Shown here piece after piece: positions 25,750 through 60,341 of a DNA stretch of 64,000 nucleotides. Both the position numbers and the translations under genes were made by a program. Below the pieces are notes generated by a model, which searched no databases, was not told the origin of the DNA, and saw only the letters and a list, made by a program, of their open reading frames with translations. The first letter of the stretch is position 1. Each line of letters starts with the position of its first letter. Origin of the DNA: Candidatus Omnitrophica bacterium UBA6215 (GTDB taxonomy: Bacteria > Omnitrophota > Gorgyraeia > Pluralincolimonadales > Pluralincolimonadaceae); assembly GCA_002421665.1 (NCBI GenBank), contig DISH01000006.1, positions 153,784 to 217,783 of the forward strand, read 5' to 3'.

Positions 25750-25753
25750 GGCC

Positions 25754-27463: not shown

Positions 27464-27478
27464 AAGCCCCGGGCGCTC

Positions 27479-27925: not shown

Positions 27926-27934
27926 CTTCCCCTG

Positions 27935-34977: not shown

Positions 34978-34984
34978 TTAAATC

Positions 34985-35515
34985 CTATTGAGGACGGCGT
35001 CCCTCGTATACCTTCTTCTTAAATATGATCTCCCTGTAGTCGAGTTCGACAGGGGGAATAAGTGTCTCAAGCAGCCTGAATACGAACGGAGCGAGCGCCG
35101 CAGTATAAAGGGCAGTCGGCACCGAAAAGAATATCACCGCTTTATAGTACGGGAAGCCTTTGGAAGATATCAGGATATCGTATATAAGCGATACGAACAT
35201 TACGGAGAGCGCCGCGAGTATCATTTGGGCCGAAACCAGGTTCCTGTAAAGGGCCTCCTTGTACATGCCTGCAGCAAAACCCACTGCACCGAAAAGTAAA
35301 ATGACCAAAGGGTGCATTCCGGTAAAAGCTACTTTTAACAACCCGGCAGTAAACCCGCATAAGGCGCCTTTCCTTCTGTTGGAGTTCAGTGCAAAGAATA
35401 ACACGCCCACAAGCATCAACTCCGGGCTGACTCCCAACAATTTTACGTAATTATGGCAGGCGGCTTCCAATATCGACATTACGGCAAGTGTTGTAATTAT
35501 GGATAGCCAGCTCAT
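34985..35515 (-). CDS. mreD: Rod shape-determining protein MreD
   Basis: 176-aa polytopic membrane protein located between mreC and mrdA. Confidence 0.6.
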   Translation of the reverse strand: MSWLSIITTLAVMSILEAACHNYVKLLGVSPELMLVGVLFFALNSNRRKGALCGFTAGLLKVAFTGMHPLVILLFGAVGFAAGMYKEALYRNLVSAQMILAALSVMFVSLIYDILISSKGFPYYKAVIFFSVPTALYTAALAPFVFRLLETLIPPVELDYREIIFKKKVYEGRRPQ

Positions 35516-36291: not shown

Positions 36292-36296
36292 ATCTT

Positions 36297-37376
36297 CTAC
36301 TGGGATTCAGGAGTCTTCGAAGCCGTCGTAACGGTGACCTTCTTAAGATATTTTATCTCGCTTAAAACCATACCCGTGCCTAAGGCAACTGCGGTTATCG
36401 GATCTTCGGCGATATGGACCGGGAGTCCTGTCTGCTCGGAAAGCAATTTATCAAGCCCCCTTAGAAGTCCGCCGCCGCCGGCCAGTACCATGCCCCGCTC
36501 TATGAGGTCCGCCGAAAGTTCGGGAGGTGTGCGTTCAAGTGTTATCCTCACCGCCTCCACTATCGCGGCAGTAGGCTCTGCAAGAGCCTCCCTGATCTCT
36601 TCGGACGATATGGTCACTGTCTTAGGAAGGCCGGCCACTAGATCGCGGCCGCGTACTTCCATTGTCGCTTCCTCTTCCACGGGGTACGCCGAACCAATCT
36701 TTATCTTGATCTCCTCGGCCGTGCGTTCGCCGATCATGAGATTATAGGTCTTCCTGAGGTGCTGGATTATAGCGTCGTCCATCTCGTCGCCGCCGATACG
36801 TATGGATTTGGAAAAAACAACATCGGAGAGCGAGACAACAGCCATCTCGGTAGTACCTCCGCCGATATCTATTATCATGTTCCCGGCAGGTTCCTGTATC
36901 GGCAAGCCGACACCTATAGCGGCTGCTATAGGTTCTTCCACCAGATATACTTCGCGCGCACCCGCCCTCTCTGCAGAATCCTTTACGGCGCGTTTCTCTA
37001 CCTCGGTTATACCGGAAGGTATAGCTATGACCATACGGGGCCTTACCAGAACCCTCCTATTATGCACTTTATTAATAAAATAACGGAGCATCGCTTCGGT
37101 TATCTCAAAATCCGCGATCACTCCGTCCTTCATGGGCCTTATAGCCACTATCGACCCGGGCGTACGGCCTAACATGCGTTTCGCCTCTTCGCCAACCGCC
37201 AGGACATGATTGGTTCCCTTCTCTATGGCTACGACGGAAGGCTCACAAAGCACTATACCCTGGCCCTTTACATAGACAAGGGTGCTCGCCGTGCCGAGAT
37301 CAATGCCCATGTCGTTAGAGAACATGCCTGATACATTGTTGAACCCTCTCTTTACGACATCGAATGGCTTATTCAT
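36297..37376 (-). CDS. mreB: Actin homolog MreB
   Basis: [12 protein letters not shown]...VVAIEKG. Start set at MNKPFDV (ATG 37376..37374), which has a perfect AGGAGG 6 nt upstream. Confidence 0.9.
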
Positions 37377-37431
37377 TACCAATCCTCCTGGTAATTTAAA
37401 AGAATACCAAACCACAGTCTAAAAGTCAACT

Positions 37432-38724
37432 TCAATCTTGGCAAGAGGTTACGAGTTCCAGGTGTTTCAGGAAATCCGGATAGGACTTTGCTATACAGTC
37501 CGTATCGTCTACAATCATCTCTCCGTTCGCGGCCAATCCCGCTATTATCATCGACATGGCGGTCCTATGGTCGCCGAAGCTCATCGCCGTGATCCCTTTC
37601 AAGCCACCGGAGCCTTCTATGACTATATCATCCCCGTTTATCAGGAATCTGGCACCCATATTCTTAAGATTGGCGGCCATTGAACTTATCCTGTCGGTCT
37701 CCTTGACCTTAAGTTCCTGCGCGCCCTTAATGACCGTAGTGCCTTCGGCAAAAGAAGCGGCTACCATCAATATAGGCAGCTCGTCTATCGTCCTCGGTAT
37801 AAGGTCATCCTCCACCGTAACTGCACGCAACCGCGCGCTTTCGACTATTATATCACCGACAGGTTCAGACGCAACATCCCTGATATTCTCTATCCTGATA
37901 TTAGCGCCCATCTGCTTCAGGATATCTATGATCCCTGACCTTGTCGGATTTATCCCGACGGAAACCAGCCTTAAAGAAGACCCTTTCACTAATGAAGCGC
38001 CCACGATAAAGAAAGCCGCGCTCGATATGTCTCCCGGAACATCTATCTTCTGGCCCCTCAGGAAAGCGCCCCCTTCTACGGAGACCTTTGACCCGTCGAC
38101 AGATACGCAGGCTCCAAAAGCCTCTAGCATACGTTCCGTATGGTCCCTCGACTTGTAAGGTTCCGTCACGGAGGTCTTGCCGTCGGCATAAAGACCCGCC
38201 AGCAATACAGCCGATTTTACCTGCGCGCTGGATATCCGTGATACATAATCTATGGGATTGAGCTTTCCGCCGTGTACGGTTATAGGCGCGTAGTTGGCAT
38301 CGTCCCTGCCCTCGAACGAGGCACCCATAAGCCTAAGCGGTTCCGTCACCCTCTTCATCGGCCTATTCGACAGACCATTTCCGGCCGAAAGAACAGTGCT
38401 GAAATCCTGTCCGGCAAGTATCCCCATCAACAGCCGCATCGAGGTGCCGGAATCGCGCATAAAAAGAGGGTTATCGGGCCTTTTAAGGCCTGATAACCCT
38501 TTTCCGCTAACGGTCACTTCACCGGAAGTTTCTTTAATATCGATACCCATGGCCATTAAAGCTTCGGTGGTAGTAAGGGTATCGTCCGAATGAAGTATAT
38601 TCTTTATTACGCTCGTGCCGGCGGCAAGCGAGGCGATTATCAATGCCCTGTGGGAGATAGATTTATCGCCCGGCAGGATAAGACTACCCGTGAACCTCTT
38701 TACAGGTCTGGCCGAGAATCCCAA
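37432..38724 (-). CDS. aroA: 3-phosphoshikimate 1-carboxyvinyltransferase (EPSP synthase)
   Basis: LPGDKSISHRALIIASLAAG is the typical N-terminus. 430 aa. Confidence 0.9.
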   Translation of the reverse strand: MGFSARPVKRFTGSLILPGDKSISHRALIIASLAAGTSVIKNILHSDDTLTTTEALMAMGIDIKETSGEVTVSGKGLSGLKRPDNPLFMRDSGTSMRLLMGILAGQDFSTVLSAGNGLSNRPMKRVTEPLRLMGASFEGRDDANYAPITVHGGKLNPIDYVSRISSAQVKSAVLLAGLYADGKTSVTEPYKSRDHTERMLEAFGACVSVDGSKVSVEGGAFLRGQKIDVPGDISSAAFFIVGASLVKGSSLRLVSVGINPTRSGIIDILKQMGANIRIENIRDVASEPVGDIIVESARLRAVTVEDDLIPRTIDELPILMVAASFAEGTTVIKGAQELKVKETDRISSMAANLKNMGARFLINGDDIVIEGSGGLKGITAMSFGDHRTAMSMIIAGLAANGEMIVDDTDCIAKSYPDFLKHLELVTSCQD

Positions 38725-45985: not shown

Positions 45986-46285
45986 TCATCGCATGCGCAT
46001 CGCCAGTTCCATCAAAGTAGGGACCAAGAAATATTTCTGTATAGAATATATCAGTATCACCGCTATGGCCGGAGATATATCTATAGGGCCGAGCGGAGGC
46101 ATAAATTTCCTGAAAGGCGCAAGCACCGGATCGGTTGCCCTGTTAAGGAACTGCACCAGCGGGTGGAACGGGTCCGGGCTCACCCAGCTCATTACGGCAC
46201 GCAATATTATCAGGAAACACAATATCTGCATGAATATCTCCACCAGCCGCGCCGCCATGATTATAAGGTTGCTTAGCGCAAACAT
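45986..46285 (-). CDS. yggT: YggT-family membrane protein
   Basis: 99 aa. VMSWVSP...DPVLAPFRKF. Confidence 0.7.
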   Translation of the reverse strand: MFALSNLIIMAARLVEIFMQILCFLIILRAVMSWVSPDPFHPLVQFLNRATDPVLAPFRKFMPPLGPIDISPAIAVILIYSIQKYFLVPTLMELAMRMR

Positions 46286-46287
46286 AT

Positions 46288-47106
46288 TTAATCCCCCGAT
46301 AATTCCTTTGATCTCCTGGCCGCGGCGATCACGGCTTTCTCGACTATGCGCTTGAACGAGGCTTTATCGAAGACCTTTATGGCCTCTTCCGTAGTCCCGC
46401 CTTTTGACGTTACGCGCTGGCGCAGTATCCCGGGCTCATGCCCCGTTTCGATAAGCAGCTTCGCTGCGCCCAATGCCGTCTTGGATACGAGCGCCTTCGC
46501 TACGTCCTTGCCCATACCCATCTTGACAGCCGCCTCTATCAATGCTTCTTTAAGATAAAAGAAGTAGGCCGGGCCGCTGCCCGATATCGCCGTAACAAGG
46601 TCGAAATACTTCTCTTCCATCACTACGGTCGCCCCGATGCTGGAAAAGATCTCTTCCGCCGTCTTGAGGTCCGCCGCCGAAGCGTGCCTGCCCCTGCAAA
46701 CCGCGGTAATGCCCGCGCCCACCAGAGCAGGAGTATTGGGCATCACCCTGACCACCCTTGTTTTTGCGCCGATCGCTTTTTCGATATACCGCGTTTTAAT
46801 ACCCGCTGCGATTGATATAACCAGCTTGCCGGACACATTACCGGAAAGTTCGCCGGCAAGCTCGTCAAAATTCTGAGGTTTTACCGCAATTATGACAATG
46901 TCGCAAGACCCGGCGAGATCTGTTACCGAAGGATAAATGGGGACACCCAGCGGCTTTCCGGCTGAACGGGCCTTGCCGGTATCGCAGTCGTATCCCCCAA
47001 GCATGCGCTTGCCGGCGCCTGCCGACCTTGCGAGACCACGCAGAATTGCATGGCCCATATTACCTAACCCTATTATCCCGACTTTCTTATGCTTCAAATA
47101 TCGCAT
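46288..47106 (-). CDS. proC: Pyrroline-5-carboxylate reductase
   Basis: VGIIGLGNMGHAILRGL Rossmann motif. P5CR C-terminal dimerisation domain. Confidence 0.85.
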   Translation of the reverse strand: MRYLKHKKVGIIGLGNMGHAILRGLARSAGAGKRMLGGYDCDTGKARSAGKPLGVPIYPSVTDLAGSCDIVIIAVKPQNFDELAGELSGNVSGKLVISIAAGIKTRYIEKAIGAKTRVVRVMPNTPALVGAGITAVCRGRHASAADLKTAEEIFSSIGATVVMEEKYFDLVTAISGSGPAYFFYLKEALIEAAVKMGMGKDVAKALVSKTALGAAKLLIETGHEPGILRQRVTSKGGTTEEAIKVFDKASFKRIVEKAVIAAARRSKELSGD

Positions 47107-47764
47107 GGCCTATCCTTAGGATATTGGCACCTTCCTCTATTGCTACCTCAAAATCCTGGGTCATGCCCATCGAGAGGTATTCCATTTTCACATTGCGCAT
47201 GGTCTTGGCCGATATAAGCGACGCTAATTTCCTCAACCTGTGAAAATACGGCCTCGATGTCTCGGGGTCATTGGTAAAAGGCGCCATCGTCATCAAGCCG
47301 CATACCCTGATGGATTTCAGCTCTGATATCTTCTCTATCAACTGGAGCGTATGCTCGGGAAGCACGCCGAATTTCGTGGCTTCTTCGGAGGTCTTTACTT
47401 CTATAAGGACCTTCTTGGGCGCCTTAAGGGCCGCGGACCTCTTTGATATCTCTTCCGCAAGCTTGAAAGAATCGACGGAATGGATCAGGTCGAATATCTT
47501 CACGGCTTCTTTTACCTTATTGGTCTGAAGATGTCCCACGAGATGCCATTTCGCGCGATGGCCTATGCCAGCGTATTTTATCTCGGCTGCCTGGATATAA
47601 CTCTCGCCTATATCGGTAGCCCCGGCTGAAATGGCTTCTTCTATCTGCGGGACCCCTACGGCCTTGGTCACACATACAAGTATTATATCCCTGTCGTTCC
47701 TTCCGACCTTCTCCGCCGCCTTGAGTATGCGTTCACGAACCTTTTTCAGGTTATCCTGTACCAT
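47087..47764 (-). CDS. yggS: YggS/PLPHP pyridoxal-phosphate homeostasis protein
   Basis: LVCVTKAV...HLVGHLQTNK. Start set at MVQDNLKKV (ATG 47764..47762), 1 nt after the ftsA stop. Confidence 0.8.
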   Translation of the reverse strand: MVQDNLKKVRERILKAAEKVGRNDRDIILVCVTKAVGVPQIEEAISAGATDIGESYIQAAEIKYAGIGHRAKWHLVGHLQTNKVKEAVKIFDLIHSVDSFKLAEEISKRSAALKAPKKVLIEVKTSEEATKFGVLPEHTLQLIEKISELKSIRVCGLMTMAPFTNDPETSRPYFHRLRKLASLISAKTMRNVKMEYLSMGMTQDFEVAIEEGANILRIGHAIFEA

Positions 47765-47765
47765 A

Positions 47766-48995
47766 TTAAAAATACTCGCTGAATATCTCTTGCACCCTGT
47801 CGATAACATTGCCCAGGGGCGTATTGGCAAAGAACTTTTTACGGGCTTTCTTCTTTGTTCCCTCTTTCGCCCAGTACTTTGCCAAGCCGAGGGAGATTAT
47901 CTGTCCGGGTTCGGCCATATTAAGGCCTTCGCCAGCAATACCTTTTACCAACCCCATCTTTACCGGCATGCTCAGAGACAATTCGAACATCTCCAGGAAA
48001 CCGCCCATATCGGAAAGCACGCCGGCTATAACGCAACCGGTAGCCGCTTCCTTGGAATGACGCATCTTTTTAAGCATACCGCTGATGTTATTTATAAGTT
48101 CTTCTGCCTTGGGCCTTAAAACCTCATGGAGCGATTTTCTGGATATCGCCCTGCTCGTTCCGCCTATCCTCAGGGTTATCTCGTCGTTACCTCCGGAAAA
48201 CGGGTCGTCAAGGTTAACCTCCCGCCTTATCAGCTGTTGCGCATAGTCATTTGGGATATTGAAGGCATCCGCTACGGAGCGTATGATGTCCCCGCCTCCG
48301 AAAGGCATTATCTCTATGGACCTTATCTCCCCGCCTCCGTAAACAACGATATGGACGGCAGAATAAGATATATATATCAATATCACCCCGAGGTCCTTAT
48401 CAATATCCTCAAGCAGCACGCTGCCGGAAGCTACGCCGGAGAGCACTATATCCTGTATCTCGAAACCTGCGGTGTTAATCGCGCGCCTGAGGTTGTGCAG
48501 ATTTGTTATAAGGGCCGTAACGAATTCCATATCGACCTCAAGGCGCGTGCCAAACATTCCGGCGGGGTCTTTTATTCCGTTCTGGCCGTCCAGGATAAAA
48601 CCCCTGGTTATTGAGTGGACTATCTCCCTGTCGAACGGGAGCACTATGGTCTTTGCGGACTCGGTGACCCGCTCTATCTCGCGACGGCCTATTTCGTTCT
48701 CCTTCTCCGCGACTGTTATGCTGCCCTTTATCTCGTAAGAACGCAAACTGGCCCCGTCGCAGCTTGTGATAAGCGAAATTATCTTGGTCTTTGCGGAAGC
48801 TTCGGCTTTCTCTACCGCTTCGGCCACCGAGAGCGCTACCTCGCTCAGGTCGGTGATAACACCGTTATCTATGCCCCGCGAACGGGATACTCCTGAGCCG
48901 AGAAGGCTCACTCCTTCTTTTTCATCCCCAACACATATTGAACATGTTATAAGGTCTTCGCTGATATCCAGTCCCGCGATCGTCTTCTTCTTCAT
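47766..48995 (-). CDS. ftsA: Cell division protein FtsA
   Basis: 409 aa. Actin fold (GLDISEDLI, VLSGVASG, PFGGGD). C-terminal amphipathic helix KKKARKKFF...IDRVQEIFSEYF. Confidence 0.85.
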   Translation of the reverse strand: MKKKTIAGLDISEDLITCSICVGDEKEGVSLLGSGVSRSRGIDNGVITDLSEVALSVAEAVEKAEASAKTKIISLITSCDGASLRSYEIKGSITVAEKENEIGRREIERVTESAKTIVLPFDREIVHSITRGFILDGQNGIKDPAGMFGTRLEVDMEFVTALITNLHNLRRAINTAGFEIQDIVLSGVASGSVLLEDIDKDLGVILIYISYSAVHIVVYGGGEIRSIEIMPFGGGDIIRSVADAFNIPNDYAQQLIRREVNLDDPFSGGNDEITLRIGGTSRAISRKSLHEVLRPKAEELINNISGMLKKMRHSKEAATGCVIAGVLSDMGGFLEMFELSLSMPVKMGLVKGIAGEGLNMAEPGQIISLGLAKYWAKEGTKKKARKKFFANTPLGNVIDRVQEIFSEYF

Positions 48996-49789
48996 TTTTT
49001 CTCCGGCTTGAAGGTCATGACCGGATCGGTAAATCTCAGGTCTATGGAATCCACCTTGGCTTTGTCCAATGCAGGGTCTCCAAGTATGCTTGCAAGCACG
49101 TCAAGCTTGCCTTGTATATCCCCGCTTCCCAGGATTACGGTTATCCCGTCGACAGAAACCGAGGCCTTCTCCGGGTAGGTCATGTTCAAGACCCCTATCT
49201 GCGAATCCCTGAACTCGCCCGTGGAATACATCTGTTTAAGTATACCCATGGCGGTATTGAGCCTTTTGGACTTGACCTTGGTCCCCGGCTTGGGGTCGGC
49301 CAGCTGCGATTCAAGCCCTGTAATAAGGGGCAGTGAGTCAAGGTTAGCCGTCTCCGATACCACTACCCCGTCGAAATCAACCGGCAACACCCTTGCAACT
49401 TTTATCCTTGCTACAGCTTCCCTGTCCTTTATGGTCGCAATGATCCTGTCTGGAAGGAATTTCGTTATGACCACTATCTGGTATTCGGGATGCTTTTGCT
49501 TTATCTTCGCGGCAAGTACAGCCGGGTCGATAGTAAAAATATTTACCGGGAACTCGAGACGGAAGTATTCCTTCTGAAGACGATAAGCGCCTTCCCTTCC
49601 CGGCTTTACCACCTCTATCTTGTCTACCGAGAAATAATCGGATGAACGGAAGAAATCATTGAACCAGAGGAAGACCCCCGTTAAGGTAAGCGCTATGACG
49701 AGAAAAGCGGCGATTGCCGTTTTATTCTCCTTCATAAATTCGCCGAACCGTTTTACGGCTTCGTTTGAATTTTTCCTTTTTCTCGCCAT
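48992..49789 (-). CDS. ftsQ: Cell division protein FtsQ/DivIB
   Basis: Single TM plus POTRA domain. Position between ddl and ftsA. Confidence 0.7.
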   Translation of the reverse strand: MARKRKNSNEAVKRFGEFMKENKTAIAAFLVIALTLTGVFLWFNDFFRSSDYFSVDKIEVVKPGREGAYRLQKEYFRLEFPVNIFTIDPAVLAAKIKQKHPEYQIVVITKFLPDRIIATIKDREAVARIKVARVLPVDFDGVVVSETANLDSLPLITGLESQLADPKPGTKVKSKRLNTAMGILKQMYSTGEFRDSQIGVLNMTYPEKASVSVDGITVILGSGDIQGKLDVLASILGDPALDKAKVDSIDLRFTDPVMTFKPEKK

Positions 49790-49791: not shown

Positions 49792-50694
49792 TCAGATAAA
49801 TGCCGAATCCAGCATCCTTTCGCAGAGTTCGGGAAAATCTATCCCGGCAACCTTCGCTGCCTTTGGCAGGAGGCTCAGTTCTGTCATACCGGGTATAGTA
49901 TTGATCTCGAGGACAAAGACTTTACCCGCGTCATCGATTATCATATCGACCCTCGAATAATTCGCACAGCCCAATGCTTTATGCGCCTTAAACGCGGCAT
50001 CCTGCGCCAGTTTCGCTTCTTTCTCGGATATCGGCGCCGGGCAAAGATATTCGGTCATCCCGACCGTATACTTAGCTACCTCGTCATAATAACGCCTCTT
50101 GGGGACCACTTGGACTACCGGAAGAGGCCTGTCATCAAGCATGCCCACCGTAAGTTCCCTGCCCTGTATGAACTTTTCCAGGAGAACCCGTTCCCCGAAC
50201 ATAAAAGCACCGGCAACGGCATTCTCCAGTTCTCCAAGGTTATCTATTATAGACACTCCTACCGAAGATCCCTGGGCCGACGGCTTTACGACCAAGGGGG
50301 TCCAAAGCTTCTTCCTGGTACGGGCACCGTTCCTGATCACATGGCAATCAGGTACATTGAGCCGGGCTTTTTTAAAGAGCATCCTTGAAGCCACCTTATC
50401 CATGCCAAGCCTGCTGGCCTTCACCTTGGAACCCGTATACGGTATCTTAAGATCCTCCAAGATCGCTTGTATCTGACCGTCCTCACCGAAGGTCCCATGC
50501 AACGCGACAAAAGCCACGTCTATACCGGCGGATTTGAGCTCCTGCCTCGTAGGAAGCCATGTCTCAAGCGCAATGACTTTATATCCCCTGGCTGAAAGCG
50601 CGTCCTTTATGGCCCTGCCTGAACGCAGAGAAACTTCCCTTTCGGCGGAAGGACCTCCCATCAATACGCCTATCCGCATGGATTTTTTATCCAC
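49792..50694 (-). CDS. ddl: D-alanine--D-alanine ligase
   Basis: RIGVLMGGPSAEREVSLRSG...ATP-grasp. Confidence 0.85.
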   Translation of the reverse strand: MDKKSMRIGVLMGGPSAEREVSLRSGRAIKDALSARGYKVIALETWLPTRQELKSAGIDVAFVALHGTFGEDGQIQAILEDLKIPYTGSKVKASRLGMDKVASRMLFKKARLNVPDCHVIRNGARTRKKLWTPLVVKPSAQGSSVGVSIIDNLGELENAVAGAFMFGERVLLEKFIQGRELTVGMLDDRPLPVVQVVPKRRYYDEVAKYTVGMTEYLCPAPISEKEAKLAQDAAFKAHKALGCANYSRVDMIIDDAGKVFVLEINTIPGMTELSLLPKAAKVAGIDFPELCERMLDSAFI

Positions 50695-51593
50695 TAAAAA
50701 TCTCCTGTAAGTTTGGCTTCTAATTTTAACACAATTTGATGTTCTTTAAAAACCTTTTTTTGTATTTCATCGATAAGTGCCCGGACGTCGACAGCCGTAG
50801 CGCCGCCTCGATTTATGATAAAATTGGCGTGTTTTTCGGATACTGCCGCACCTCCCACGGACTTCCCCCTGAACCCGCAGCTTTCTATGACCCGCCAGGC
50901 AGGGACCTTACCGGAAGGGTTAAGGAAGATACTGCCGATGCCCGGATGGCCCAGGTCCTGCGTCTTCCTCTTCTTCTCCAGGTTGCTTTTGATCTCGGCT
51001 TCTACCCTGTCGACAGGTTTCTTCTCCAACTTCAATTTCGCTGACAAAAGGACGCTGCCCTCAAGATTCGAACTGCGATATGAGAAAGTAAGCCCGCTTC
51101 TGCCAAGTACCATCTTCTCCAGACCCCTTATTAAAGTGACTTCTTCGACACAATCGCCTATCGCCCTGTTAGGCCAGCCAGCGTTCATTACGAGGGCCCC
51201 TCCCAGCGTCCCGGGTATCCCGGAGAGGAATTCAAGCCCTCCAAGGCCTTCGGAGGAGGTTTTCTTCAATAACTCGTTAACCTTAAGGCCGCAACCCGCA
51301 ACAACCGTATCGCCCTCTATATTCAGCTTCCCGAATGACGGCGCGCTAAAAGATATTACGAACCCCCTTATGCCCTTATCCCCAACCAGGAGTTTACTGC
51401 CTCCTCCTATCACGAAAACGCCCATCTTGTGGCCATAGGCATACTCAAGAACCCTCAGAAGGTCTTCTTCATCGGAAGGATATACGAATATCTCCGCCGG
51501 GCCGCCTATTTTGAATGTCGTGTGGCCCGATATGGGTTCTTCGAATTTTATCGTACCCTTTATGAACTTCAGGTCTTCTTCCCGGACCGGCAT
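50694..51593 (-). CDS. murB: UDP-N-acetylenolpyruvoylglucosamine reductase
   Basis: FAD-binding GGGSKLL, and a C-terminal MurB domain. Confidence 0.85.
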   Translation of the reverse strand: MPVREEDLKFIKGTIKFEEPISGHTTFKIGGPAEIFVYPSDEEDLLRVLEYAYGHKMGVFVIGGGSKLLVGDKGIRGFVISFSAPSFGKLNIEGDTVVAGCGLKVNELLKKTSSEGLGGLEFLSGIPGTLGGALVMNAGWPNRAIGDCVEEVTLIRGLEKMVLGRSGLTFSYRSSNLEGSVLLSAKLKLEKKPVDRVEAEIKSNLEKKRKTQDLGHPGIGSIFLNPSGKVPAWRVIESCGFRGKSVGGAAVSEKHANFIINRGGATAVDVRALIDEIQKKVFKEHQIVLKLEAKLTGDF

Positions 51594-52987
51594 CTTCTCC
51601 TCTTCTTCCCGGATGAAAGCTCACCCGCTATCGAATCCGCTATGCCCGTTATGTCCCCGGCGCCCATCATTAAAAGCATGTCACCTCGTTTGATCTGTCC
51701 AAGCAGGTGCCGCTTGAGGTCTTTTTTATCGACATACGAAACATCTCTATGTCCGCATTCTTTCGCCTGCGCGTATATATTCCTGCCAGAGACATTATCA
51801 AGCGCCTCTTCCGAAGCCGCGTATATATCCGTCAATACCAGCTTGTCCGCCGCGTCAAAACACCTTCCGAACTTATCCTTAAGGTATTTCGTGCGGGAGA
51901 ACCTGTGGGGCTGGAAAGCTACTATAAGGCGCTTGGGCGCCCAGTTCCTCGCCGCGAGTATCGTTGCTTTTATCTCCGACGGGTGGTGCGCGTAATCGTC
52001 TATGACCTTTATCCCGTTGCCGGAATATTTCACCTGGAACCTGCGTGCCGCCCCGGTGAAATCCTCTACCGCTTCCTTTATAGCTGAAAAATCCAGGCCG
52101 AGTTCCAGTGCGACGGCAAAAGCGGCCAGGGCATTGGAAACATTGTGTATCCCCGGGATATTGATCGCAGCCCTTCCAAGGCGTCCGCCGCGGTAAACCA
52201 CATCGAACTCGGAGCGGGAATCATGCATCTTTATATCTTCGGGATGGATATCGCAGCCCTTCGAAAGCCCGAAAGTAAGGACGTTTCCCGAGTAACCCCC
52301 TAAAGCCCTTTTCAGGTTATCACAATCACCGCAGGCAAACAGCATGCCTCCAGGCTTTATCTTCCCGATGAACTTAAGGTACCATGCGATTATCTCGCCC
52401 ATGTTCCTGTAATAGTCAAGGTGTTCGGCGTCAATATTCGTCACGACACTGTAGAAAGGCCTGAGGTGGACGAAAGAGCCGTCGCTCTCATCGGCCTCAA
52501 CAACAAAATATTCACCTCCCCCGACCCTGGCGTTGCCTTCAAGCGACTTTATCTCGCCTCCGAGTATAGCCGTCGGGTCCAGGCCCGTCCTGAACAATAT
52601 ATGCGCTATAAGCGAGGATGTTGTGGTCTTGCCGTGGGCGCCGGTAACCGTTATCCCCTTCTTGCCGTTCATCACCAATGCAAGCATGTCGGCGCGGTGA
52701 AGCGTCGTGATACCCTTGTTACGGGCAGCCTTTATCTCCGGGTTCTCGGGAGTTATGGATGACGAAAAGACGACTATATCGGCGCCTTTTATGTTCTTCT
52801 CATGATGCCCCTCGTGGAACTTGCCGCCCAGGGATTCAAGTTTCTCTACTATTCTTGAACGTTTCACATCCGAACCCGAGACCTTATTGCCCTGCTTTAG
52901 CAGGACGAACGCTATCGCGCTCATTCCTATGCCGCCTATGCCTATAAAATGTATATGCTTCTTATTTCCCGTTTTCATAGTATACAA
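51569..52987 (-). CDS. murC: UDP-N-acetylmuramate--L-alanine ligase
   Basis: IHFIGIGGIGMSAIA...GAHGKTTT. Confidence 0.9.
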   Translation of the reverse strand: MYTMKTGNKKHIHFIGIGGIGMSAIAFVLLKQGNKVSGSDVKRSRIVEKLESLGGKFHEGHHEKNIKGADIVVFSSSITPENPEIKAARNKGITTLHRADMLALVMNGKKGITVTGAHGKTTTSSLIAHILFRTGLDPTAILGGEIKSLEGNARVGGGEYFVVEADESDGSFVHLRPFYSVVTNIDAEHLDYYRNMGEIIAWYLKFIGKIKPGGMLFACGDCDNLKRALGGYSGNVLTFGLSKGCDIHPEDIKMHDSRSEFDVVYRGGRLGRAAINIPGIHNVSNALAAFAVALELGLDFSAIKEAVEDFTGAARRFQVKYSGNGIKVIDDYAHHPSEIKATILAARNWAPKRLIVAFQPHRFSRTKYLKDKFGRCFDAADKLVLTDIYAASEEALDNVSGRNIYAQAKECGHRDVSYVDKKDLKRHLLGQIKRGDMLLMMGAGDITGIADSIAGELSSGKKRRRCRSGKKT

Positions 52988-54045
52988 TCCGCCAGGCGCC
53001 CTGCCGCGTCGGCAACAGCGAATTTTCTCGCGGCCTCCGACATGGCTCTAAGTGCATACATATCCCCGATCAACGTAAATACCTTGTCCTTCAGCATCTG
53101 CGCAGTAAGTCCCTCCTCGCGCATTATTACCGTTCCCCCGGCCTTTTCCAAAGCTGCGGCGTTAAAATACTGGTGCCCCCCGGCAAACCTGTAAGGGATC
53201 ATTATGGACGGTATGCCCAAGACCGCTATCTCAAAGAGCGCGGTAGCCCCCGCCCTTGATATCACAAGGTCCGCCGGCGCGTAGGCGGTACCTATGTCTT
53301 CGACAAAATCATAGACACGGGCTTCTACGCCGGAGGTCCTGTACCTTGCAAAAACATCCTCGTAGTTCTTCATACCCGCTATATGTATAATCTGTATACC
53401 GGCCTTCTCCCTGTCATCCAACATCCCAAGCATATCGCCCACTATCATGTTTATCCGCTGTGACCCCTGGCTTCCTCCAAGTACAAGCATAGTGAACCTG
53501 TCCCCGGAAAAGCCGTAACTTTTTAGGGCCTCTTCTTTTGAAGCCGACAATAATCTCCTGCGTATCGGGTTTCCGGTAAAGACCGCTTTCCCGCCAAATG
53601 CTTTTTTGGTCTCCCAAAAACTAACGGCAACGCGTTTGGCGAGAATGGCCAGTATCCTGTTGGCCAGGCCCGCCTCGCAATTCTGTTCATGCAGATACAG
53701 CGGCCTGCCCGCAAGCGCGCCCAACAGGCATACGGGAAAGGACGCGTAACCGCCGAAACCTACTATTACATCAGGCTTATAATCTGCCAGCAGTTTTGCC
53801 GATCGTACTGATGCGCGAAAGAACCTGGATATGAATTTCACGAACTTAACCGGATCGGCTGATATCTTAGCAACCGGCAGGAGGACATACGGAAGTCCGA
53901 AAGAACCGAACAACTTGACTTCAAGCGGATGATCGGTACCTACAAGGAGCACGTCTCTTATTCCCCGCCTGTCCAGTTCCTGAGCCAGGCTGAGCCCGGG
54001 GAATATGTGCCCGCCTGTCCCGCCGCAGGCTATCAGCACCTTCAT
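52975..54045 (-). CDS. murG: Lipid II synthase MurG
   Basis: MKVLIACGGTGGHIFPGLSLA. Confidence 0.9.
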   Translation of the reverse strand: MKVLIACGGTGGHIFPGLSLAQELDRRGIRDVLLVGTDHPLEVKLFGSFGLPYVLLPVAKISADPVKFVKFISRFFRASVRSAKLLADYKPDVIVGFGGYASFPVCLLGALAGRPLYLHEQNCEAGLANRILAILAKRVAVSFWETKKAFGGKAVFTGNPIRRRLLSASKEEALKSYGFSGDRFTMLVLGGSQGSQRINMIVGDMLGMLDDREKAGIQIIHIAGMKNYEDVFARYRTSGVEARVYDFVEDIGTAYAPADLVISRAGATALFEIAVLGIPSIMIPYRFAGGHQYFNAAALEKAGGTVIMREEGLTAQMLKDKVFTLIGDMYALRAMSEAARKFAVADAAGRLADCIL

Positions 54046-54048
54046 GCT

Positions 54049-55152
54049 TTATTCCTTCTCATAAGGTGTCTCGCTGTATTTGGCAATGTTAAACAGAAAT
54101 GCCACGCCCATCATATCGAAGATCAGGGAAGAACCGCCATAGCTGATAAAAGGCAGGGGCAGGCCTTTTGTCGGCATGGAGCCCGTGGCCACGGCGATAT
54201 TTATTATCGCCTCCAAAGCTATCATTGATACGATACCCAGTGCTGCAAGATGCCCGAACAGGTCCCTTGCCCTCAAGGCGATCCTGAAGCCCAGCCATAT
54301 AAACAGAACGAAAAGTATTATGACGGCGCCCGCGCCGACAAGCCCGAGCTCTTCACCTATTATTGAAAATATGAAATCCGTATGGCACCCGGGCAGGTAG
54401 AGCAATTTCTGCCGGGATTGGCCCAGCCCTACGCCGAACAGGCCCCCGGAACCTAAAGCTATGAATGATTGGATTATCTGGAAACCTACGCCTTGAGGGT
54501 CGCTCCAAGGATCTATAAAAGCCAGGATCCTCCTCTTCCTGTATGCCTTAAGGAATACCAGGACCAATAGCACCGGCACCGAACCCACGATCATCGGTAT
54601 AAGATGGGCGAGTTTCATCCCTGCCACGAACAGCATTATTACAGCTACTATGCTTATGGCTACGGAAGTTCCGAGGTCCGGTTCAAGCAAAATTAGCCCT
54701 ACTGTAACGCCAAGTATTATCATGGGAGGCATAAAGCCTTCCCAAAAGCTGCGTATATCACTGTGTTTCCTGGAAAGAAAATCCGCAAGATACAGTATCA
54801 TAACCAGTTTCATGGCCTGCGACGGCTGGAAGCTTAGGGAGAATAACCTGAACCACCTATGGGCTCCCGATATCTCGCGGCTTATCCCCGGTACAAGGAC
54901 AAGCACAAGAAGGAAAAAAGTAACCATGAGCACGGGCTTTATATACTTCTTGATAACGTTATAATCTACGGCCATTATCATAATTGAGGCTATAACGCCG
55001 AGGAAAAGGTAGACGAGTTGGCGCTTAAGGAAATAGGCGCTGTCCCTGAGGGTCTCGTAGGCGTTTACGGCGCTCGCGCTATAGACCATCACCACTCCTA
55101 TGGCAAGCAGGATGACGGTCACCATGAATAACTGTATCCTCAATCTCCTCAC
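54049..55152 (-). CDS. ftsW: SEDS glycosyltransferase FtsW
   Basis: FtsW/RodA family. dcw position between murD and murG. Confidence 0.85.
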   Translation of the reverse strand: MRRLRIQLFMVTVILLAIGVVMVYSASAVNAYETLRDSAYFLKRQLVYLFLGVIASIMIMAVDYNVIKKYIKPVLMVTFFLLVLVLVPGISREISGAHRWFRLFSLSFQPSQAMKLVMILYLADFLSRKHSDIRSFWEGFMPPMIILGVTVGLILLEPDLGTSVAISIVAVIMLFVAGMKLAHLIPMIVGSVPVLLVLVFLKAYRKRRILAFIDPWSDPQGVGFQIIQSFIALGSGGLFGVGLGQSRQKLLYLPGCHTDFIFSIIGEELGLVGAGAVIILFVLFIWLGFRIALRARDLFGHLAALGIVSMIALEAIINIAVATGSMPTKGLPLPFISYGGSSLIFDMMGVAFLFNIAKYSETPYEKE

Positions 55153-56468
55153 TTGAGGCTCCCCCGTCTTTTCTTCAATGAACGCACCTCATCCTTGAAC
55201 GCTTTCCCCCTCTCCTCGAAATTCTTGAACATATCGAAACTGGCGCACATGGGAGATAACAGAACGCAATCGCCGCGGGAAGCTAAGGCAAATGCCTTTT
55301 CGACCGCATCTTTCATCGAACCGGCGGATATACAAGGCGTACTCTTACCAAGCTGTTTTTTTATCTTCCTTTTAGCCTCGCCGATCAACACGAGTTTTTT
55401 CACCTTCAAGGCAACCGCGCGCGAAGCCCTGGTAAAATCACTGCCCTTATCATGGCCGCCGGCTATCAATATAACGGGCCTTTGGCACGATTCCAGGGCC
55501 ATGACCGTTGCCAGGACCGTCGTCCCTTTGGAGTCATTTATGAATTCTACCCCTTCTATCTCCTTGACACGCTCGAACCTGTGCTCCAGGCCCTTGAATC
55601 CCATGACAGCCTGCCTTACCTTGCGCCTGCTTATCCCGAATATCGATGCGACGCTCTGGCATGCAAGAAGATTCTCCATATTGTGCGCCCCTTTTATCTT
55701 CATCTCTTCCTGACGGCAGACGGGAGCGGGAGAACCTTTACGCCTGGAGTAAAACAACACCTTCGCCCGGGTCGCGGATGCAAGCTTTCTTGTCAGGGGG
55801 TCATCGAAATTCAAGACTGTCCGGTCGGTCTTTCCCTGGTTCTCAAATATCCTCGCTTTTGCCCCGATATAAGCCTTAAGGTTAGGATGCCTGTCAAAAT
55901 GGTTTTGGGATATGTTGAGCACTACGGAAACCTGCGGACGGAATTTTTTTATGCCCTCCAGCTGAAAAGAGCTTACCTCAAGGACCACTACGGAGTCTTT
56001 TCTTACCTTGCCTATCTCCCCGCAAAAAGGATTTCCTATGTTTCCGCAGACGACGGCATGCCTGCCGCCCTTCTTAAGTATCCGTCCTATAAGCGTAGTC
56101 GTTGTCGACTTCCCATTGGTGCCGGTAACCGCGACTATCGGCGCCGGACAGCAAAGATACCCGAGCTCTATCTCGCCTATAACGGGTATTCCCATCTCAC
56201 GCGCCCATTTCAAGACAGGAGAATATTCGGGAATGCCGGGGCTTATGACCACCAGATCCCCGCCCTCTACGGATTCCCTGCTGTGGCCGCCGAGTTCTAC
56301 AGAGATCCCGCGCGCAATAAGTTTGCGCTTTGCCAGCCTAAGGGCTTTAGAATCCCCGGAGTCAGTTGCCCGGACAACCGCACCCATGTTATTTAGCAGT
56401 AGCGCGGCGGCTATTCCGCTCTTCGCAAGGCCTGCAACGGTAACCTTCGCCCCTTTAAAGTTCTTCAT
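55149..56468 (-). CDS. murD: UDP-N-acetylmuramoylalanine--D-glutamate ligase
   Basis: VAVTGTNGKSTTTTLI. Confidence 0.9.
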   Translation of the reverse strand: MKNFKGAKVTVAGLAKSGIAAALLLNNMGAVVRATDSGDSKALRLAKRKLIARGISVELGGHSRESVEGGDLVVISPGIPEYSPVLKWAREMGIPVIGEIELGYLCCPAPIVAVTGTNGKSTTTTLIGRILKKGGRHAVVCGNIGNPFCGEIGKVRKDSVVVLEVSSFQLEGIKKFRPQVSVVLNISQNHFDRHPNLKAYIGAKARIFENQGKTDRTVLNFDDPLTRKLASATRAKVLFYSRRKGSPAPVCRQEEMKIKGAHNMENLLACQSVASIFGISRRKVRQAVMGFKGLEHRFERVKEIEGVEFINDSKGTTVLATVMALESCQRPVILIAGGHDKGSDFTRASRAVALKVKKLVLIGEAKRKIKKQLGKSTPCISAGSMKDAVEKAFALASRGDCVLLSPMCASFDMFKNFEERGKAFKDEVRSLKKRRGSLK

Positions 56469-57556
56469 CTCAATTTAAGCGTTGACAGGCTGACTAAAGC
56501 CAGTATTATACCTATTATCCAGAACCTTATAACCACCTTTGACTCAGACCAGCCCTTCATCTGGAAATGATGGTGTATGGGCGCCATAAGAAATACCCTC
56601 TTCCCGAAGAACCTGAACGATGTTATCTGTATTATGACCGAGAGGGCTTCCATAACAAATATTCCGCCCACTATAAGCAGGAGCAGCTCCTTTTTGATAA
56701 AAGTGGCCACCACCCCTATAGCCCCTCCCAGAGCGAGTGAACCGGTATCACCCATGAAAACATTCGCAGGGAAACAGTTAAACCAAAGGAACCCCAGGCC
56801 GGCGCCCAGCATGGCGGCGCAAAACACGGAAAGTTCACCCGTCCCCGGTATATATATTATATTCAGGTATTCGCTTATCTTTGCGTTGCCCGTAATATAG
56901 CTCAACGCTGTATATGTAAGCACCACGATTATCGTGCACCCTATAGCGAGACCGTCAAGGCCGTCGGTCAGGTTGACGGCATTTGATGAACCTACTATAA
57001 CGGTCATCGTAAAGAGAACGTAGAACATCCCCAGGTTCATTACCAGGTTTTTCAGGAATGGTATGTCCAGCTGCTTGCCGATCTGCGGATCAAAATATAA
57101 GTAAAGTCCCAGCATAAGTCCGAGCATAATCTGGCCTATGAACTTAGAGCGCGCAGTAAGACCTTTTGATTTCTTAAGCTTCATCTTCAGATAATCGTCA
57201 AGGAAGCCTACGACACAAAGCCAGATTATCGATATCAGGGCGAGTAACACATATTTATTGGTCATGTCGCCCCATAACAGCGTTGAGATTACTATCGCCG
57301 TTACTATGAGCAGGCCGCCCATGGTCGGCGTGCCGGCCTTGTCCTTATGCATCTCATATATGCCCTTGGCGTCATCCTCCGTCCTGACTACCTGGCCTAC
57401 TTTGAGCGCGCGAAGCCTCTCTATTATGAACGGGCCGAGTATCATACACAGGAGAAATGAGGTGATCGCCGCACCGGCTGCGCGGAACGTTATGTACTTG
57501 AAGACATTGAAGCCGAAGAAAATGTCCCTTAACGGGTAGAGCAGTTGATAAAACAC
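56465..57556 (-). CDS. mraY: Phospho-N-acetylmuramoyl-pentapeptide transferase
   Basis: Polytopic protein with DGLDGLA and NAVNLTDGLDG motifs. Confidence 0.9.
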   Translation of the reverse strand: MFYQLLYPLRDIFFGFNVFKYITFRAAGAAITSFLLCMILGPFIIERLRALKVGQVVRTEDDAKGIYEMHKDKAGTPTMGGLLIVTAIVISTLLWGDMTNKYVLLALISIIWLCVVGFLDDYLKMKLKKSKGLTARSKFIGQIMLGLMLGLYLYFDPQIGKQLDIPFLKNLVMNLGMFYVLFTMTVIVGSSNAVNLTDGLDGLAIGCTIIVVLTYTALSYITGNAKISEYLNIIYIPGTGELSVFCAAMLGAGLGFLWFNCFPANVFMGDTGSLALGGAIGVVATFIKKELLLLIVGGIFVMEALSVIIQITSFRFFGKRVFLMAPIHHHFQMKGWSESKVVIRFWIIGIILALVSLSTLKLR

Positions 57557-58896
57557 TTTTTGATCTCCTCCATCTTCATGCCGCGCGAACCTTTTACCAG
57601 GACCAGGTCCCCCTGCCTCAATATTTTTTTCAAGGCCGTTGCAGCCTCTACCGAATTATCAAAACGGAGGAGGGTTTCTCCGCCGATCCCCTCCTCCCGA
57701 GCGCCCTCCAGGATATACCCGGAGAACGAGCCCACACTTACCAGTACTTCCACATTTGCCCTTGCGGCCAGGCGGCCGATCTCCCTGTGGGATTCAGGCG
57801 CAGAATCCCCTAGCTCAAGCATGTCACCGGCAACAAGCACCTTCCTCTTATCAGGGCCCAGATCCCGCAGCGTCTCTATGGCCGCCTTCATCGACAGCGG
57901 ATTGGAATTGTAACAATCAAAGACAAAATCCACCCCGCCCGACGATTCCAATTCCATCCTGAGTTTCGGCAGCCGGAAGCCTTCGAGAGCTTTTGCCGCT
58001 TCCTGCACTTCAATACCGTAAAGCGAAGCTGCCGCTATGGCGGCAAGTACGTTATATATATTGTGCCTCCCTATTATCCCCAGTCTCACGATATGGGTAT
58101 CATTAACCGTAAAATCCATGCCGCAGCTGTCCTCTTTTATCTTCCCGGCGGTATAATTACAGCCCGCGTTCAAACCGAATGTGACGGTATCCGCACACAT
58201 ATCCATGGCCGCATCGGCAAGATCGCGGTCGTCACCGTTGACTACGGCGTATCCCCCCTGGCCTACCCTCTTCAAAAGGTCAAGTTTCTCTGTCCTTACG
58301 TTATCAACGGTCCCGAAGAATTCCAGGTGAGAAGGGCCGGCGTTCACAATTATTCCGCAGTTTGGCTGGACCATGTCCGAAAGATAGGCGATCTCCCCGA
58401 AATGGTTAGTCCCTAACTCTATTACTGCCATATCGTGAGGCCTCTCCATCTTAAGCAGCGTCTGCGGTACCCCGATGAAATTATTCTTGGTGCCCTCGTT
58501 CTTCAGGACATTATACCTTGAAGAAAGTATGGTAAAAAGCATCTCCTTTGTCGTTGTCTTGCCGTTAGAACCGGTCAGGGCTATGACCGGGATGTCGAAC
58601 CTACGGCGGTGGTAACCCGCCAGTTTACCGAAAGCCTTGAGGGTATCGTCCACCCGTATGACAGAAGCGGACCCGGATATAGATACCCGATGTTCGACAA
58701 CCACTCCTGATGCCCCCTTCCTTACCGCTTCCTCAACAAAATCGTGACCGTCGAAAGTAGCGCCTTTTATCGCCACAAAAAGGCAACCTTTCTCAGGCTT
58801 CCTCGAATCCGTCGATACGCCCGTAAAATCCTCACGCGCGCCATCCCGCGCCAGCGTGCCCCCCGTCGCTTCCAGGACCTCTCCTATCTTGAACAA
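57529..58896 (-). CDS. murF: UDP-MurNAc-tripeptide--D-Ala-D-Ala ligase
   Basis: ALTGSNGKTTTKEM. Confidence 0.85.
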   Translation of the reverse strand: MFKIGEVLEATGGTLARDGAREDFTGVSTDSRKPEKGCLFVAIKGATFDGHDFVEEAVRKGASGVVVEHRVSISGSASVIRVDDTLKAFGKLAGYHRRRFDIPVIALTGSNGKTTTKEMLFTILSSRYNVLKNEGTKNNFIGVPQTLLKMERPHDMAVIELGTNHFGEIAYLSDMVQPNCGIIVNAGPSHLEFFGTVDNVRTEKLDLLKRVGQGGYAVVNGDDRDLADAAMDMCADTVTFGLNAGCNYTAGKIKEDSCGMDFTVNDTHIVRLGIIGRHNIYNVLAAIAAASLYGIEVQEAAKALEGFRLPKLRMELESSGGVDFVFDCYNSNPLSMKAAIETLRDLGPDKRKVLVAGDMLELGDSAPESHREIGRLAARANVEVLVSVGSFSGYILEGAREEGIGGETLLRFDNSVEAATALKKILRQGDLVLVKGSRGMKMEEIKKCFINCSTR

Positions 58897-60341
58897 AGTA
58901 TCTTCCTCGCTACTTCCCTGTCGTCGAACGAAACCGTTGTATTCTTAAGCACCTGGTACGCCTCGTGGCCCTTTCCGGCGATCAATACGCAATCCCCCGG
59001 GCGGGCCTCTGAAAGAGCTTCGCTTATGGCTTCGGTCCTGTCCAGTACCGTTCTATAGTTATCCGTCCCGATCCCCGACACTATCTGCGCAGCTATATCC
59101 GCAGGGTCTTCGCTTCTCGGGTTATCGGAAGTCACAAAGACGAGATCCGATAGCCGCGCGGCGACCCTGCCCATCCTTGGGCGCTTGGTCCTGTCCCTGT
59201 CCCCTCCGCAGCCGAAGACGGTTATTATCCTGTTCCCGATCATCGGCTTTAGCGCCGAAAGGACGTTTACAAGCGCGTCGTCGGTATGGGCATAATCTAC
59301 AAATACCTTGAACGGTTGCCCGCATTCTACGGGTTCAAGCCTCCCGGGGACCGATGACAAACCCTCGATGCCCAGCTTTACCTCTTCGGCGGAAAAATCC
59401 ATGCTTATACCGCAGGCGGCGGCGGCGGTCATATTGTATACATTATGCATCCCGATGAGCCTCGAGTTTATCTCCAGCCTTCCTTTCGGGTAATTGACAG
59501 TGAACCTTGTCCCTTCGAGGGAAAGTTTTATGTCCGTGGAAAGAAAATCGGCGACCAGGTCGGTCCCGTATGTCACAACTCTCCCCTTCGAGACCTTAAG
59601 GAGTTTCCTGCCCCATTCATCATCCATGTTTATTACGGCATAGGCATCATCCCGCAAATTAAGGAAGAGGCGTGATTTTGCCTTGAAATACTCCTCCATG
59701 GTCTTATGATAGTCGAGATGATCCCCAGTCAAATTTGTGAATATGGCCGCGTCAAAAGATATGCCGCCGACCCTGTTCTGGTCCAAAGCATGGGAAGAGA
59801 CTTCCATGACAAGATAGTCGCTCCCGCTTTTGATGATATCTGCCATGAAACCGCAGAGTTCCATGGGACCCGGCGTCGTGTTCGCCGCAGGGATCACCCT
59901 CCCGCCTATCCTGTAGCATATGGTGCCTATGACCCCGGCCTTGTGCCCCGTCGAGGATATTATGCTGTCCATAAGGTAAGATATCGTCGTCTTACCGTTG
60001 GTTCCCGTGACCCCTATGCTCTTTAGCTTGCTCGCAGGACGGCCAAAGAATTCGTTGGCGATCCTGGGCGCCGCGTCCCTTGAACTTCTGACGTATATCC
60101 TTGCCACATGGTCCGGCACGATAATATCATCTTCCATGACAACGGCCACTGCGCCCCTGTCGACCGCATCGTTTACATACCTGTGCCCGTTCGATGCCGC
60201 GCCGTTCACGGCGACAAAAAGAAAAGAACTCCCGGCTGCCCGCGAATCGCAGGTCACCCCTTTTATGTCGATATCTTCCCCGAGAGGGAATACCGAGGAA
60301 TCCCTGTAATCGAGGCTGCCGATAAGGTCCCTTAATCTCAC
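58884..60341 (-). CDS. murE: UDP-MurNAc-L-Ala-D-Glu--2,6-diaminopimelate ligase
   Basis: GVTGTNGKTT. A DNPR motif (DNPRSEDP) indicates meso-DAP specificity. Confidence 0.9.
   Translation of the reverse strand: MRLRDLIGSLDYRDSSVFPLGEDIDIKGVTCDSRAAGSSFLFVAVNGAASNGHRYVNDAVDRGAVAVVMEDDIIVPDHVARIYVRSSRDAAPRIANEFFGRPASKLKSIGVTGTNGKTTISYLMDSIISSTGHKAGVIGTICYRIGGRVIPAANTTPGPMELCGFMADIIKSGSDYLVMEVSSHALDQNRVGGISFDAAIFTNLTGDHLDYHKTMEEYFKAKSRLFLNLRDDAYAVINMDDEWGRKLLKVSKGRVVTYGTDLVADFLSTDIKLSLEGTRFTVNYPKGRLEINSRLIGMHNVYNMTAAAACGISMDFSAEEVKLGIEGLSSVPGRLEPVECGQPFKVFVDYAHTDDALVNVLSALKPMIGNRIITVFGCGGDRDRTKRPRMGRVAARLSDLVFVTSDNPRSEDPADIAAQIVSGIGTDNYRTVLDRTEAISEALSEARPGDCVLIAGKGHEAYQVLKNTTVSFDDREVARKILCSR

Follow-up and report, generated by a model that had tools for sequence, protein, structure and literature searches.

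A division and cell wall gene cluster that ends at ftsA: loss of ftsZ and retention of a conserved FtsA in Omnitrophota

Previous studies reported that Omnitrophota lack ftsZ. Seymour et al. 2023 (Nat Microbiol, PMC10066038, Supplementary Note 1) did not find the gene in the species representatives of the phylum, with one exception, a sequence that shares 89% identity with an archaeal protein. Pende et al. 2021 (Nat Commun) named Omnitrophica, Planctomycetes and Chlamydiae as phyla without FtsZ (legend of Fig. 5), and their supplementary table gives FtsZ as NA and FtsA as present for Omnitrophus magneticus, RIFOXYB12_FULL_50_7 and WOR_2 SM23_29. The only "Omnitrophica" with FtsZ, OLB16, was rejected as a member of Omnitrophota, being a separate phylum that has ftsZ (Seymour 2023, Supplementary Note 2). 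Here we describe the dcw cluster (genes for cell wall and division) in a stretch of 64,000 nucleotides of contig DISH01000006.1, referred to below as the window, in which ftsA is followed after a single nucleotide by yggS and ftsZ is missing. The loss of ftsZ in Omnitrophota is already known, and the window is a clean example of this published trait of the phylum.

The surveys of Seymour 2023 and Pende 2021 concern the same phylum and the same trait (ftsZ absent, FtsA present), but they record presence and absence only and do not cover the anatomy of the locus, the conserved synteny that flanks the deletion or how FtsA has changed. In print, the loss is mentioned only in a supplementary note and in the legend of a figure, and a 2025 review passed it over; Henriques 2025 counts Omnitrophota among the phyla that have "highly conserved" dcw genes, and its supplements contain no Omnitrophota rows. 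Three points were not found described: the clean excision of ftsZ with conserved synteny, the keeping of a constrained FtsA without FtsZ, and the sequence changes in FtsA. Division without FtsZ is a long-standing question, and nearly all work on it concerns Chlamydiae and Planctomycetes, which have both lost FtsA as well. Omnitrophota offer a different natural experiment, with a complete peptidoglycan and divisome gene set, an unbroken dcw cluster, FtsA kept and FtsZ missing, and the picture of the locus together with the FtsA changes makes FtsZ-independent division testable in a third, distinct lineage. For annotation, a missing ftsZ in an Omnitrophota bin is no sign of incompleteness.

The ftsA-yggS junction in the window and in related genomes

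The dcw genes of the window are contiguous from 63890 down to 47766, all on the minus strand, in the canonical order mraZ-rsmH-ftsL-ftsI-murE-murF-mraY-murD-ftsW-murG-murC-murB-ddl-ftsQ-ftsA, most of them abutting or overlapping their neighbours by a few bases, and the terminal ftsZ after ftsA is missing. The slot between ftsA and yggS is the position of ftsZ in most bacteria. The genes, in the order in which they are read, are:

63441..63890, minus strand: mraZ, the first dcw gene (Pfam MraZ, 9.4e-43)
62502..63395, minus strand: rsmH (mraW; TIGR00006, 311 bits, cut-off 154)
62126..62515, minus strand: probable ftsL, named mainly from its position and an N-terminal membrane helix (TIGR02209, 22.4 bits, below the cut-off of 42.45; no Pfam match)
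60342..62069, minus strand: class B penicillin-binding protein of the ftsI type (SpoVD/PBP2/FtsI models, 2e-169 to 8e-85, all below their specific cut-offs; dcw position)
49792..60341, minus strand: murE, murF, mraY, murD, ftsW, murG, murC, murB and ddl (NCBIfam models above cut-off except for murB, which is recognised by Pfam FAD_binding_4 and MurB_C)
48992..49789, minus strand: ftsQ (Pfam FtsQ_DivIB_C, 2.6e-09; 4-nt overlap with the start of ftsA)
47766..48995, minus strand: ftsA, 409 aa (TIGR01174, 231.9 bits, cut-off 175.85; Pfam SHS2_FTSA, 3.6e-24)
47762..47768, minus strand: the ftsA-yggS junction TAA-T-ATG (ftsA stop TAA 47768-47766, single T 47765, yggS ATG 47764-47762)
47087..47764, minus strand: yggS (ylmE), pyridoxal phosphate-binding protein (TIGR00044, 172.6 bits, cut-off 106.25)
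46288..47106, minus strand: proC (Pfam P5CR_dimer, 2.4e-36, and F420_oxidored)
45986..46285, minus strand: yggT (ylmG; Pfam YGGT, 2.7e-21)

Read directly, the minus strand at the junction is ...AGC GAG TAT TTT TAA T ATG GTA CAG..., in which the codons before the ftsA stop encode S-E-Y-F and the reading frames on both sides are intact. The longest mechanical open reading frame (ORF) of yggS begins at a TTG at 47830; the ATG start, giving a 225-aa product, was the one chosen by the gene callers in six assemblies, and TIGR00044 aligns from residue 3 of this product. A promoter and terminator scan of 45.9-49.9 kb returned counts not above those of shuffled sequence, and nothing at the ftsA-yggS junction. 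A sequence-only reading of the window had described a textbook, unbroken dcw cluster from mraZ to ftsA and a yggS starting 1 nt after ftsA, with no space for ftsZ; the NCBIfam and Pfam models bear out the first statement (for ftsL and ftsI largely through position), and the direct reading of the strand confirms the second.

No trace of ftsZ was recovered from the sequence around ftsA. E. coli FtsZ gave no tblastn match better than E=4 in the 64-kb window, the tubulin signature G[GA]G[TS]G[STAG]G is present in none of its six frames, and the 10 kb flanking ftsA to each side hold no FtsZ match in any of the related GTDB loci examined. Remnants of ftsZ were also sought in the longer ftsA-yggS gaps of three loci (L016, 146 nt; L017, 34 nt; L018, 421 nt), where only chance-level matches were obtained. 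In total, 20 loci have an ftsA without an ftsZ next to it. The closest FtsA from outside the Omnitrophota-type group (P0039), taken as a control, has as its next gene one that encodes Tubulin and FtsZ_C domains.

The identical FtsA, the 1-nt junction and the same neighbours were found in six independent assemblies (four Logan assemblies of different runs and two Joint Genome Institute metagenomes), on contigs of up to 206 kb. Further, when the profile of the window's FtsA clade was scanned over one genome per GTDB species, 13 loci with 95-51% FtsA identity were obtained, and yggS directly follows ftsA in 12/12 of those that extend past ftsA, so that the adjacency, which the sequence-only reading had thought worth looking for in relatives, does recur. 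The ftsA-yggS gap in these 12 species is mostly 2-6 nt, with a maximum of 421 nt, and yggS is followed, where the contig extends, by proC, yggT, pnp (purine nucleoside phosphorylase) and ileS. Moreover, the dcw cluster ends with ...ddl-ftsQ-ftsA, without ftsZ, in seven Omnitrophota-type loci outside the GTDB scan (six more distant ones and SM23_29), one of which sits on a closed 1.14 Mb chromosome (CP070655.1); the gene after ftsA in these seven is yggS, proC or an unrelated gene. WOR_2 SM23_29 encodes an FtsA of the window's clade (P0036, 50% identity) in the arrangement ftsA-yggS-proC-yggT-pnp-ileS. On CP070655.1 (locus L022), ftsA is followed by an 82-aa proC fragment with the NAD-binding part only (11352-11596), and there is no yggS; in this reduced genome the synteny downstream of ftsA appears to be eroding.

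The Rfam scan of the window found no RNA family, and so no rRNA from which the taxonomy could be read directly. At NCBI, the closest FtsA homologs (78-50% identity) are named as metagenome-assembled genomes of Candidatus Omnitrophota (formerly Omnitrophica, OP3), and 11 of the 13 related GTDB loci are named Candidatus Omnitrophota or Omnitrophica; by these names the window belongs to Omnitrophota. Two loci titled "uncultured Planctomycetia bacterium", L007 (CAZAEH010000003.1) and L016 (CAZUZR010000038.1), carry the Omnitrophota-type cluster, and their names are probably wrong; the FtsA of L007 is 95% identical to that of the window, which makes it the closest genome found.

The ftsA-yggS junction is ancient. 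As yggS/ylmE and yggT/ylmG come after ftsZ in many bacteria, an ancestor with ftsA-ftsZ-yggS-proC-yggT is the most parsimonious one. The deletion of ftsZ is real and old, with the remaining dcw cluster intact, and we hold with high confidence that the loss is genuine and lineage-wide.

FtsA in the window and among its relatives

The window FtsA scores above the family cut-offs of TIGR01174 (231.9 against 175.85), PF02491 (85.4 against 25.4) and, barely, PF14450 (33.1 against 31.8), with about 25-33% identity to any FtsA outside its clade. Its AlphaFold model, built from 92 sequences (predicted local distance difference test score 86.5, predicted template modelling score 0.85), has the actin-like (ASKHA) fold with a 1C/SHS2 domain in place of 1B. 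The best PDB matches of this model by Foldseek are 7q6i, 7q6d, 7q6f and 7q6g (FtsA of Vibrio, E. coli and Xenorhabdus; template modelling (TM) score 0.79-0.87), and PilM and MreB score lower. In E. coli, FtsA is the membrane tether for FtsZ and its 1C domain recruits late divisome proteins. The model predicts a C-terminal helix at residues 393-408 after a basic, low-confidence linker (384-396); the hydrophobic moment of this helix is 0.58, compared with 0.57 for the E. coli membrane-targeting sequence, and the C-terminal motif IFS[DE]YF is conserved in the window's clade. The window FtsA is thus predicted to bind the membrane through an amphipathic C-terminal helix, in agreement with the retained membrane-targeting helix proposed from the letters alone. 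The ratio of nonsynonymous to synonymous substitution rates (dN/dS) of ftsA is 0.07-0.08 against three relatives, equal to that of ddl and ftsQ; ftsA is under strong purifying selection and is not decaying.

An exhaustive search with the clade profile over 1.84 billion representative proteins placed the window's FtsA clade in a single 50%-identity representative (743 bits), with a continuum of FtsA proteins from 350 bits down. The C-terminal [DE]YF of the window FtsA is found in 30 of the 87 aligned representatives, and the named members of this group are Omnitrophota. We compared these 30 Omnitrophota-type representatives with the 57 other FtsA representatives, and the window's clade with its 36 sequences was considered as well.

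In the 2B helix (EPRYTE in E. coli), E. coli R300 and E303, which we take to form salt bridges with the C-terminal tail of FtsZ (T. maritima FtsA:FtsZ-peptide structure 4A2A; E. coli genetics), align with K296 and E299 of the window. The R300 column is Arg in 57/57 other FtsA representatives but only in 6/30 of the Omnitrophota-type ones (P0150-P0239), in which 12 different residues occur, and the E303 column is Glu in 55/57 and 11/30, respectively. As the replacement residues at the R300 site are varied, relaxed constraint is indicated rather than one inherited change. Within the window's clade of 36, Arg is present in 7, and the window itself has Lys. If R300 does contact the FtsZ tail, the relaxed Arg of the Omnitrophota-type FtsAs would be an independent sequence signature of a lost partner. 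An FtsA that works with FtsZ would be expected beside ftsZ and with the 2B Arg/Glu pair, and the window FtsA was found with neither the adjacent gene nor this pair.

The nucleotide site has changed in the window's clade. Of the 57 other FtsA representatives, 54-57 have the conserved residue at each of G16, D210, G212 and G337 (E. coli numbering). In the clade, G16 is replaced by Ser (34/36; Gly 1/36), D210 by Tyr, Phe, His or Cys (Asp 0/36), G212 by Ser, Cys or Thr (Gly 0/36), and G337 by Asp, Glu, Val or Asn (Gly 0/36), so that the consensus shifts from GLDIGT to GLDISE, from DIGGGT to YISYSA and from TGGG to AG[DEV]L (FtsA residues 8-15, 207-216 and 322-328). The replacement residues are themselves conserved in the clade, which judged by its sequences appears to lack the ASKHA nucleotide-binding motifs (phosphate 1, phosphate 2, adenosine). 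In the other Omnitrophota FtsAs the canonical residues are mostly retained, and only the window's clade has lost the site.

A strict phosphate-2 pattern, DxG[GA]GT, by which 26 of the 30 Omnitrophota-type FtsAs are "degenerate", was dropped as evidence for loss of ATP binding, as S. aureus FtsA, with DIGEDVT at this place, crystallises with ATP (3WQU). S. aureus FtsA keeps the Asp and the first Gly, unlike the window's clade. T. maritima FtsA is also non-canonical at phosphate 2. The changes in the clade exceed the variation among ATP-binding FtsAs and suggest, without proving it, a loss of nucleotide binding; the FtsA of the window's clade may be a pseudo-ATPase that no longer binds nucleotide.

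Explanations for division without FtsZ

We consider it probable, on the whole of the evidence, that ftsZ was cleanly deleted and that division is FtsZ-independent. An ancestor with ...ftsQ-ftsA-ftsZ-yggS-proC-yggT... would have lost ftsZ by a clean deletion, and the lineage would have divided without FtsZ since. Constriction would be driven by septal peptidoglycan synthesis through FtsW-FtsI with FtsQ and FtsL, and membrane-bound FtsA would position this synthesis as a cytoplasmic scaffold via its 1C domain, instead of tethering a Z-ring; such a scaffold would correspond to the role that FtsA plays downstream of the Z-ring in E. coli, and the neighbouring MreB/Rod system may assist. This role of FtsA is a tentative proposal, whose chances we put a little short of even. 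It would fit the relaxed 2B Arg of the Omnitrophota-type FtsAs and the replaced nucleotide-site residues of the window's clade, and the latter suggest a scaffold independent of ATP. Taken furthest, the proposal would make Omnitrophota the only known lineage that lost FtsZ and kept FtsA, with FtsA as the primary organiser of the divisome, a nucleotide-free pseudo-ATPase scaffold in the window's family, and with the relaxed 2B Arg elsewhere as a fossil of the lost FtsZ contact; in this full form we find it rather doubtful.

Several points weigh against this picture. What is said here of the division mechanism of Omnitrophota is drawn from gene content and sequence. The genome-wide absence of ftsZ rests on the surveys of Seymour 2023 and Pende 2021 and on locus-level data, our own coverage being the 64-kb window and flanks of about 10 kb. 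The 30 Omnitrophota-type representatives in the 2B comparison are mutually related, and Fisher P values overstate their independence. The window's clade has Lys or Arg at R300 in 27/36 and Glu at E303 in 27/36, and its 2B helix shows no clear degeneration and might yet accommodate a peptide of some partner. The FtsZ-binding role of R300 and E303 is taken over from the T. maritima structure and E. coli genetics, and a non-canonical phosphate-2 loop alone is no proof of lost ATP binding, as S. aureus FtsA (3WQU) demonstrates.

The competing explanation that carries most weight is a chlamydial type of division, in which MreB and the Rod system would be the main organisers and FtsA would be accessory or repurposed. 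A complete murA-mreBCD-pbp2-rodA cluster is located 8 kb downstream on the same strand:

32156..38724, minus strand: murA, mreB, mreC, mreD, PBP2 (penicillin-binding protein 2, mrdA) and rodA, a complete Rod system (Pfam; MreB NF010539, 534 bits, cut-off 293)

Chlamydiae, which are FtsZ-less members of the Planctomycetes-Verrucomicrobia-Chlamydiae (PVC) group, use MreB at the division site, as is established (reviewed in PMC5147048), and the degenerate nucleotide site of the clade's FtsA could mean a reduced role. However, in Chlamydiae and most Planctomycetes the loss of ftsZ went along with that of ftsA, whereas ftsA was kept in every Omnitrophota lineage examined and stays at the end of the dcw cluster with a dN/dS of ~0.08, and a Rod system is not diagnostic, being present also in ordinary FtsZ-using rods. 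We regard organisation mainly by MreB as unlikely, while noting that it and the FtsA scaffold are not mutually exclusive.

It is improbable that FtsZ has been replaced by an unrelated or unrecognisably divergent cytoskeletal protein, encoded elsewhere, that binds FtsA. The Lys/Arg and Glu at the 2B positions of most clade members would fit a retained peptide-binding site, and the envelope supercluster contains conserved uncharacterised proteins, such as the membrane-anchored coiled-coil protein at 38726-39493. On the other hand, no candidate was identified, nothing tubulin-like is present in the window or any flank, and the 2B-helix residues have drifted in the other Omnitrophota lineages.

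A move of ftsZ to another place in the genome, with ordinary Z-ring division, is more improbable still. It could draw on the extent of the inspected sequence (64 kb here and, in the relatives, about 10 kb to each side of ftsA) and on Henriques 2025, in which Omnitrophota stand among the phyla with "highly conserved" dcw genes. Opposed to it, the species representatives of Seymour 2023 are without ftsZ, bar the single archaeal-like sequence, four Omnitrophica genomes in Pende 2021, SM23_29 of this FtsA clade among them, have the entry NA for FtsZ, and the Arg that is invariant in the 57 other FtsAs is relaxed in the Omnitrophota-type ones, as expected with the partner gone. The sequence-only reading had left two branches, a relocated ftsZ or a lineage dividing without it; the two genome-wide surveys contradict the former and support the latter.

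An artefact of assembly or binning that dropped ftsZ has a negligible probability, for although the source is metagenomic, the recurrence of the same 1-nt junction across six assemblies that are independent in sample and pipeline excludes a mis-assembly at ~47.76 kb, once offered as a trivial explanation, ftsA and yggS are adjacent in 12 other species at spacings of 2 to 421 nt, and the frames to both sides of the window's junction are intact.

Neighbouring genes and comparison with known systems

The region from 32 to 64 kb is a single-orientation run of envelope, division and housekeeping genes. Directly upstream of murA-mreB, a gene at 38726-39493 (minus strand) encodes a 255-aa protein with an N-terminal membrane helix, a coiled coil of about 150 residues and a small beta-rich C-terminal domain, to which no Pfam or NCBIfam family could be assigned. 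The gene is also present at 19259-20026 of locus L023 and 19503-20270 of locus L001, and the same position in a distant Omnitrophota lineage is held by a 255-aa gene without a Pfam family; this coiled-coil protein may be an envelope or division factor. Downstream of yggT, the longest ORF of ileS (42372-45233, minus strand; 953 aa) overlaps the preceding phosphorylase gene (45146-45973, minus strand) by 88 nt; in other assemblies ileS was called as 925 aa with a 4-nt overlap, and the downstream start is probably the real one.

Further along, the region 12080-32156 (both strands) holds a radical-SAM gene at 30522-32156 and, about 16 kb away from it, a DUF2344 gene at 13576-14001 whose match covers the first half of the model only. 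Radical-SAM and DUF2344 partners are usually neighbours in the interval from rodA to RNase G. In the window they are parted by a stretch with a GGDEF/GAF/HAMP protein and a type IV pilus cluster, as if a block had been inserted. The pilus cluster (14181-29002) includes two PilB-like ATPases in tandem, which carry MshEN domains (24037-25749 and 25754-27463), a 148-aa MshEN-only ORF (27479-27925) and a PilT-like ATPase, and a diguanylate cyclase gene (29017-30462) adjoins it. MshEN domains are receptors of cyclic di-GMP. As for other losses in the phylum, ftsY (the signal recognition particle receptor) and ribosomal protein L30 are absent lineage-wide, and the loss of ftsY is said to be unique to Omnitrophota (PMC10066038, Supplementary Note 1).

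Compared with the canonical FtsA of E. coli and Vibrio (7Q6D, 7Q6F, 7Q6I), the window FtsA has the same fold (TM 0.80-0.86), the same 1C layout, the C-terminal amphipathic helix and the position after ftsQ, but it is without an FtsZ partner, its nucleotide-site residues are replaced, and R300 is mostly Lys in its clade. The FtsZ-less Planctomycetota, which divide by fission or budding (Phycisphaerae, Brocadiia, Planctomycetales), belong like Omnitrophota to the PVC group; there ftsZ was lost in the ancestor of the phylum and many dcw genes were kept in some classes, with the remaining dcw genes not essential in Planctopirus. Most Planctomycetota lost ftsA and ftsB, whereas Omnitrophota keep ftsA under purifying selection. 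Chlamydiae, also of the PVC group and without FtsZ, likewise kept peptidoglycan and the mur and fts genes, and MreB is present in both lineages. Chlamydiae use MreB/RodZ with peptidoglycan synthesis at the division plane, are without FtsA as well and live as obligate intracellular bacteria, and their dcw cluster is fragmented. The window departs from this type, in which FtsZ and FtsA are both absent and MreB is the organiser, as its FtsA is present and conserved beside a present MreB, and Omnitrophota thus combine the lack of FtsZ with a kept FtsA and an unbroken dcw cluster.

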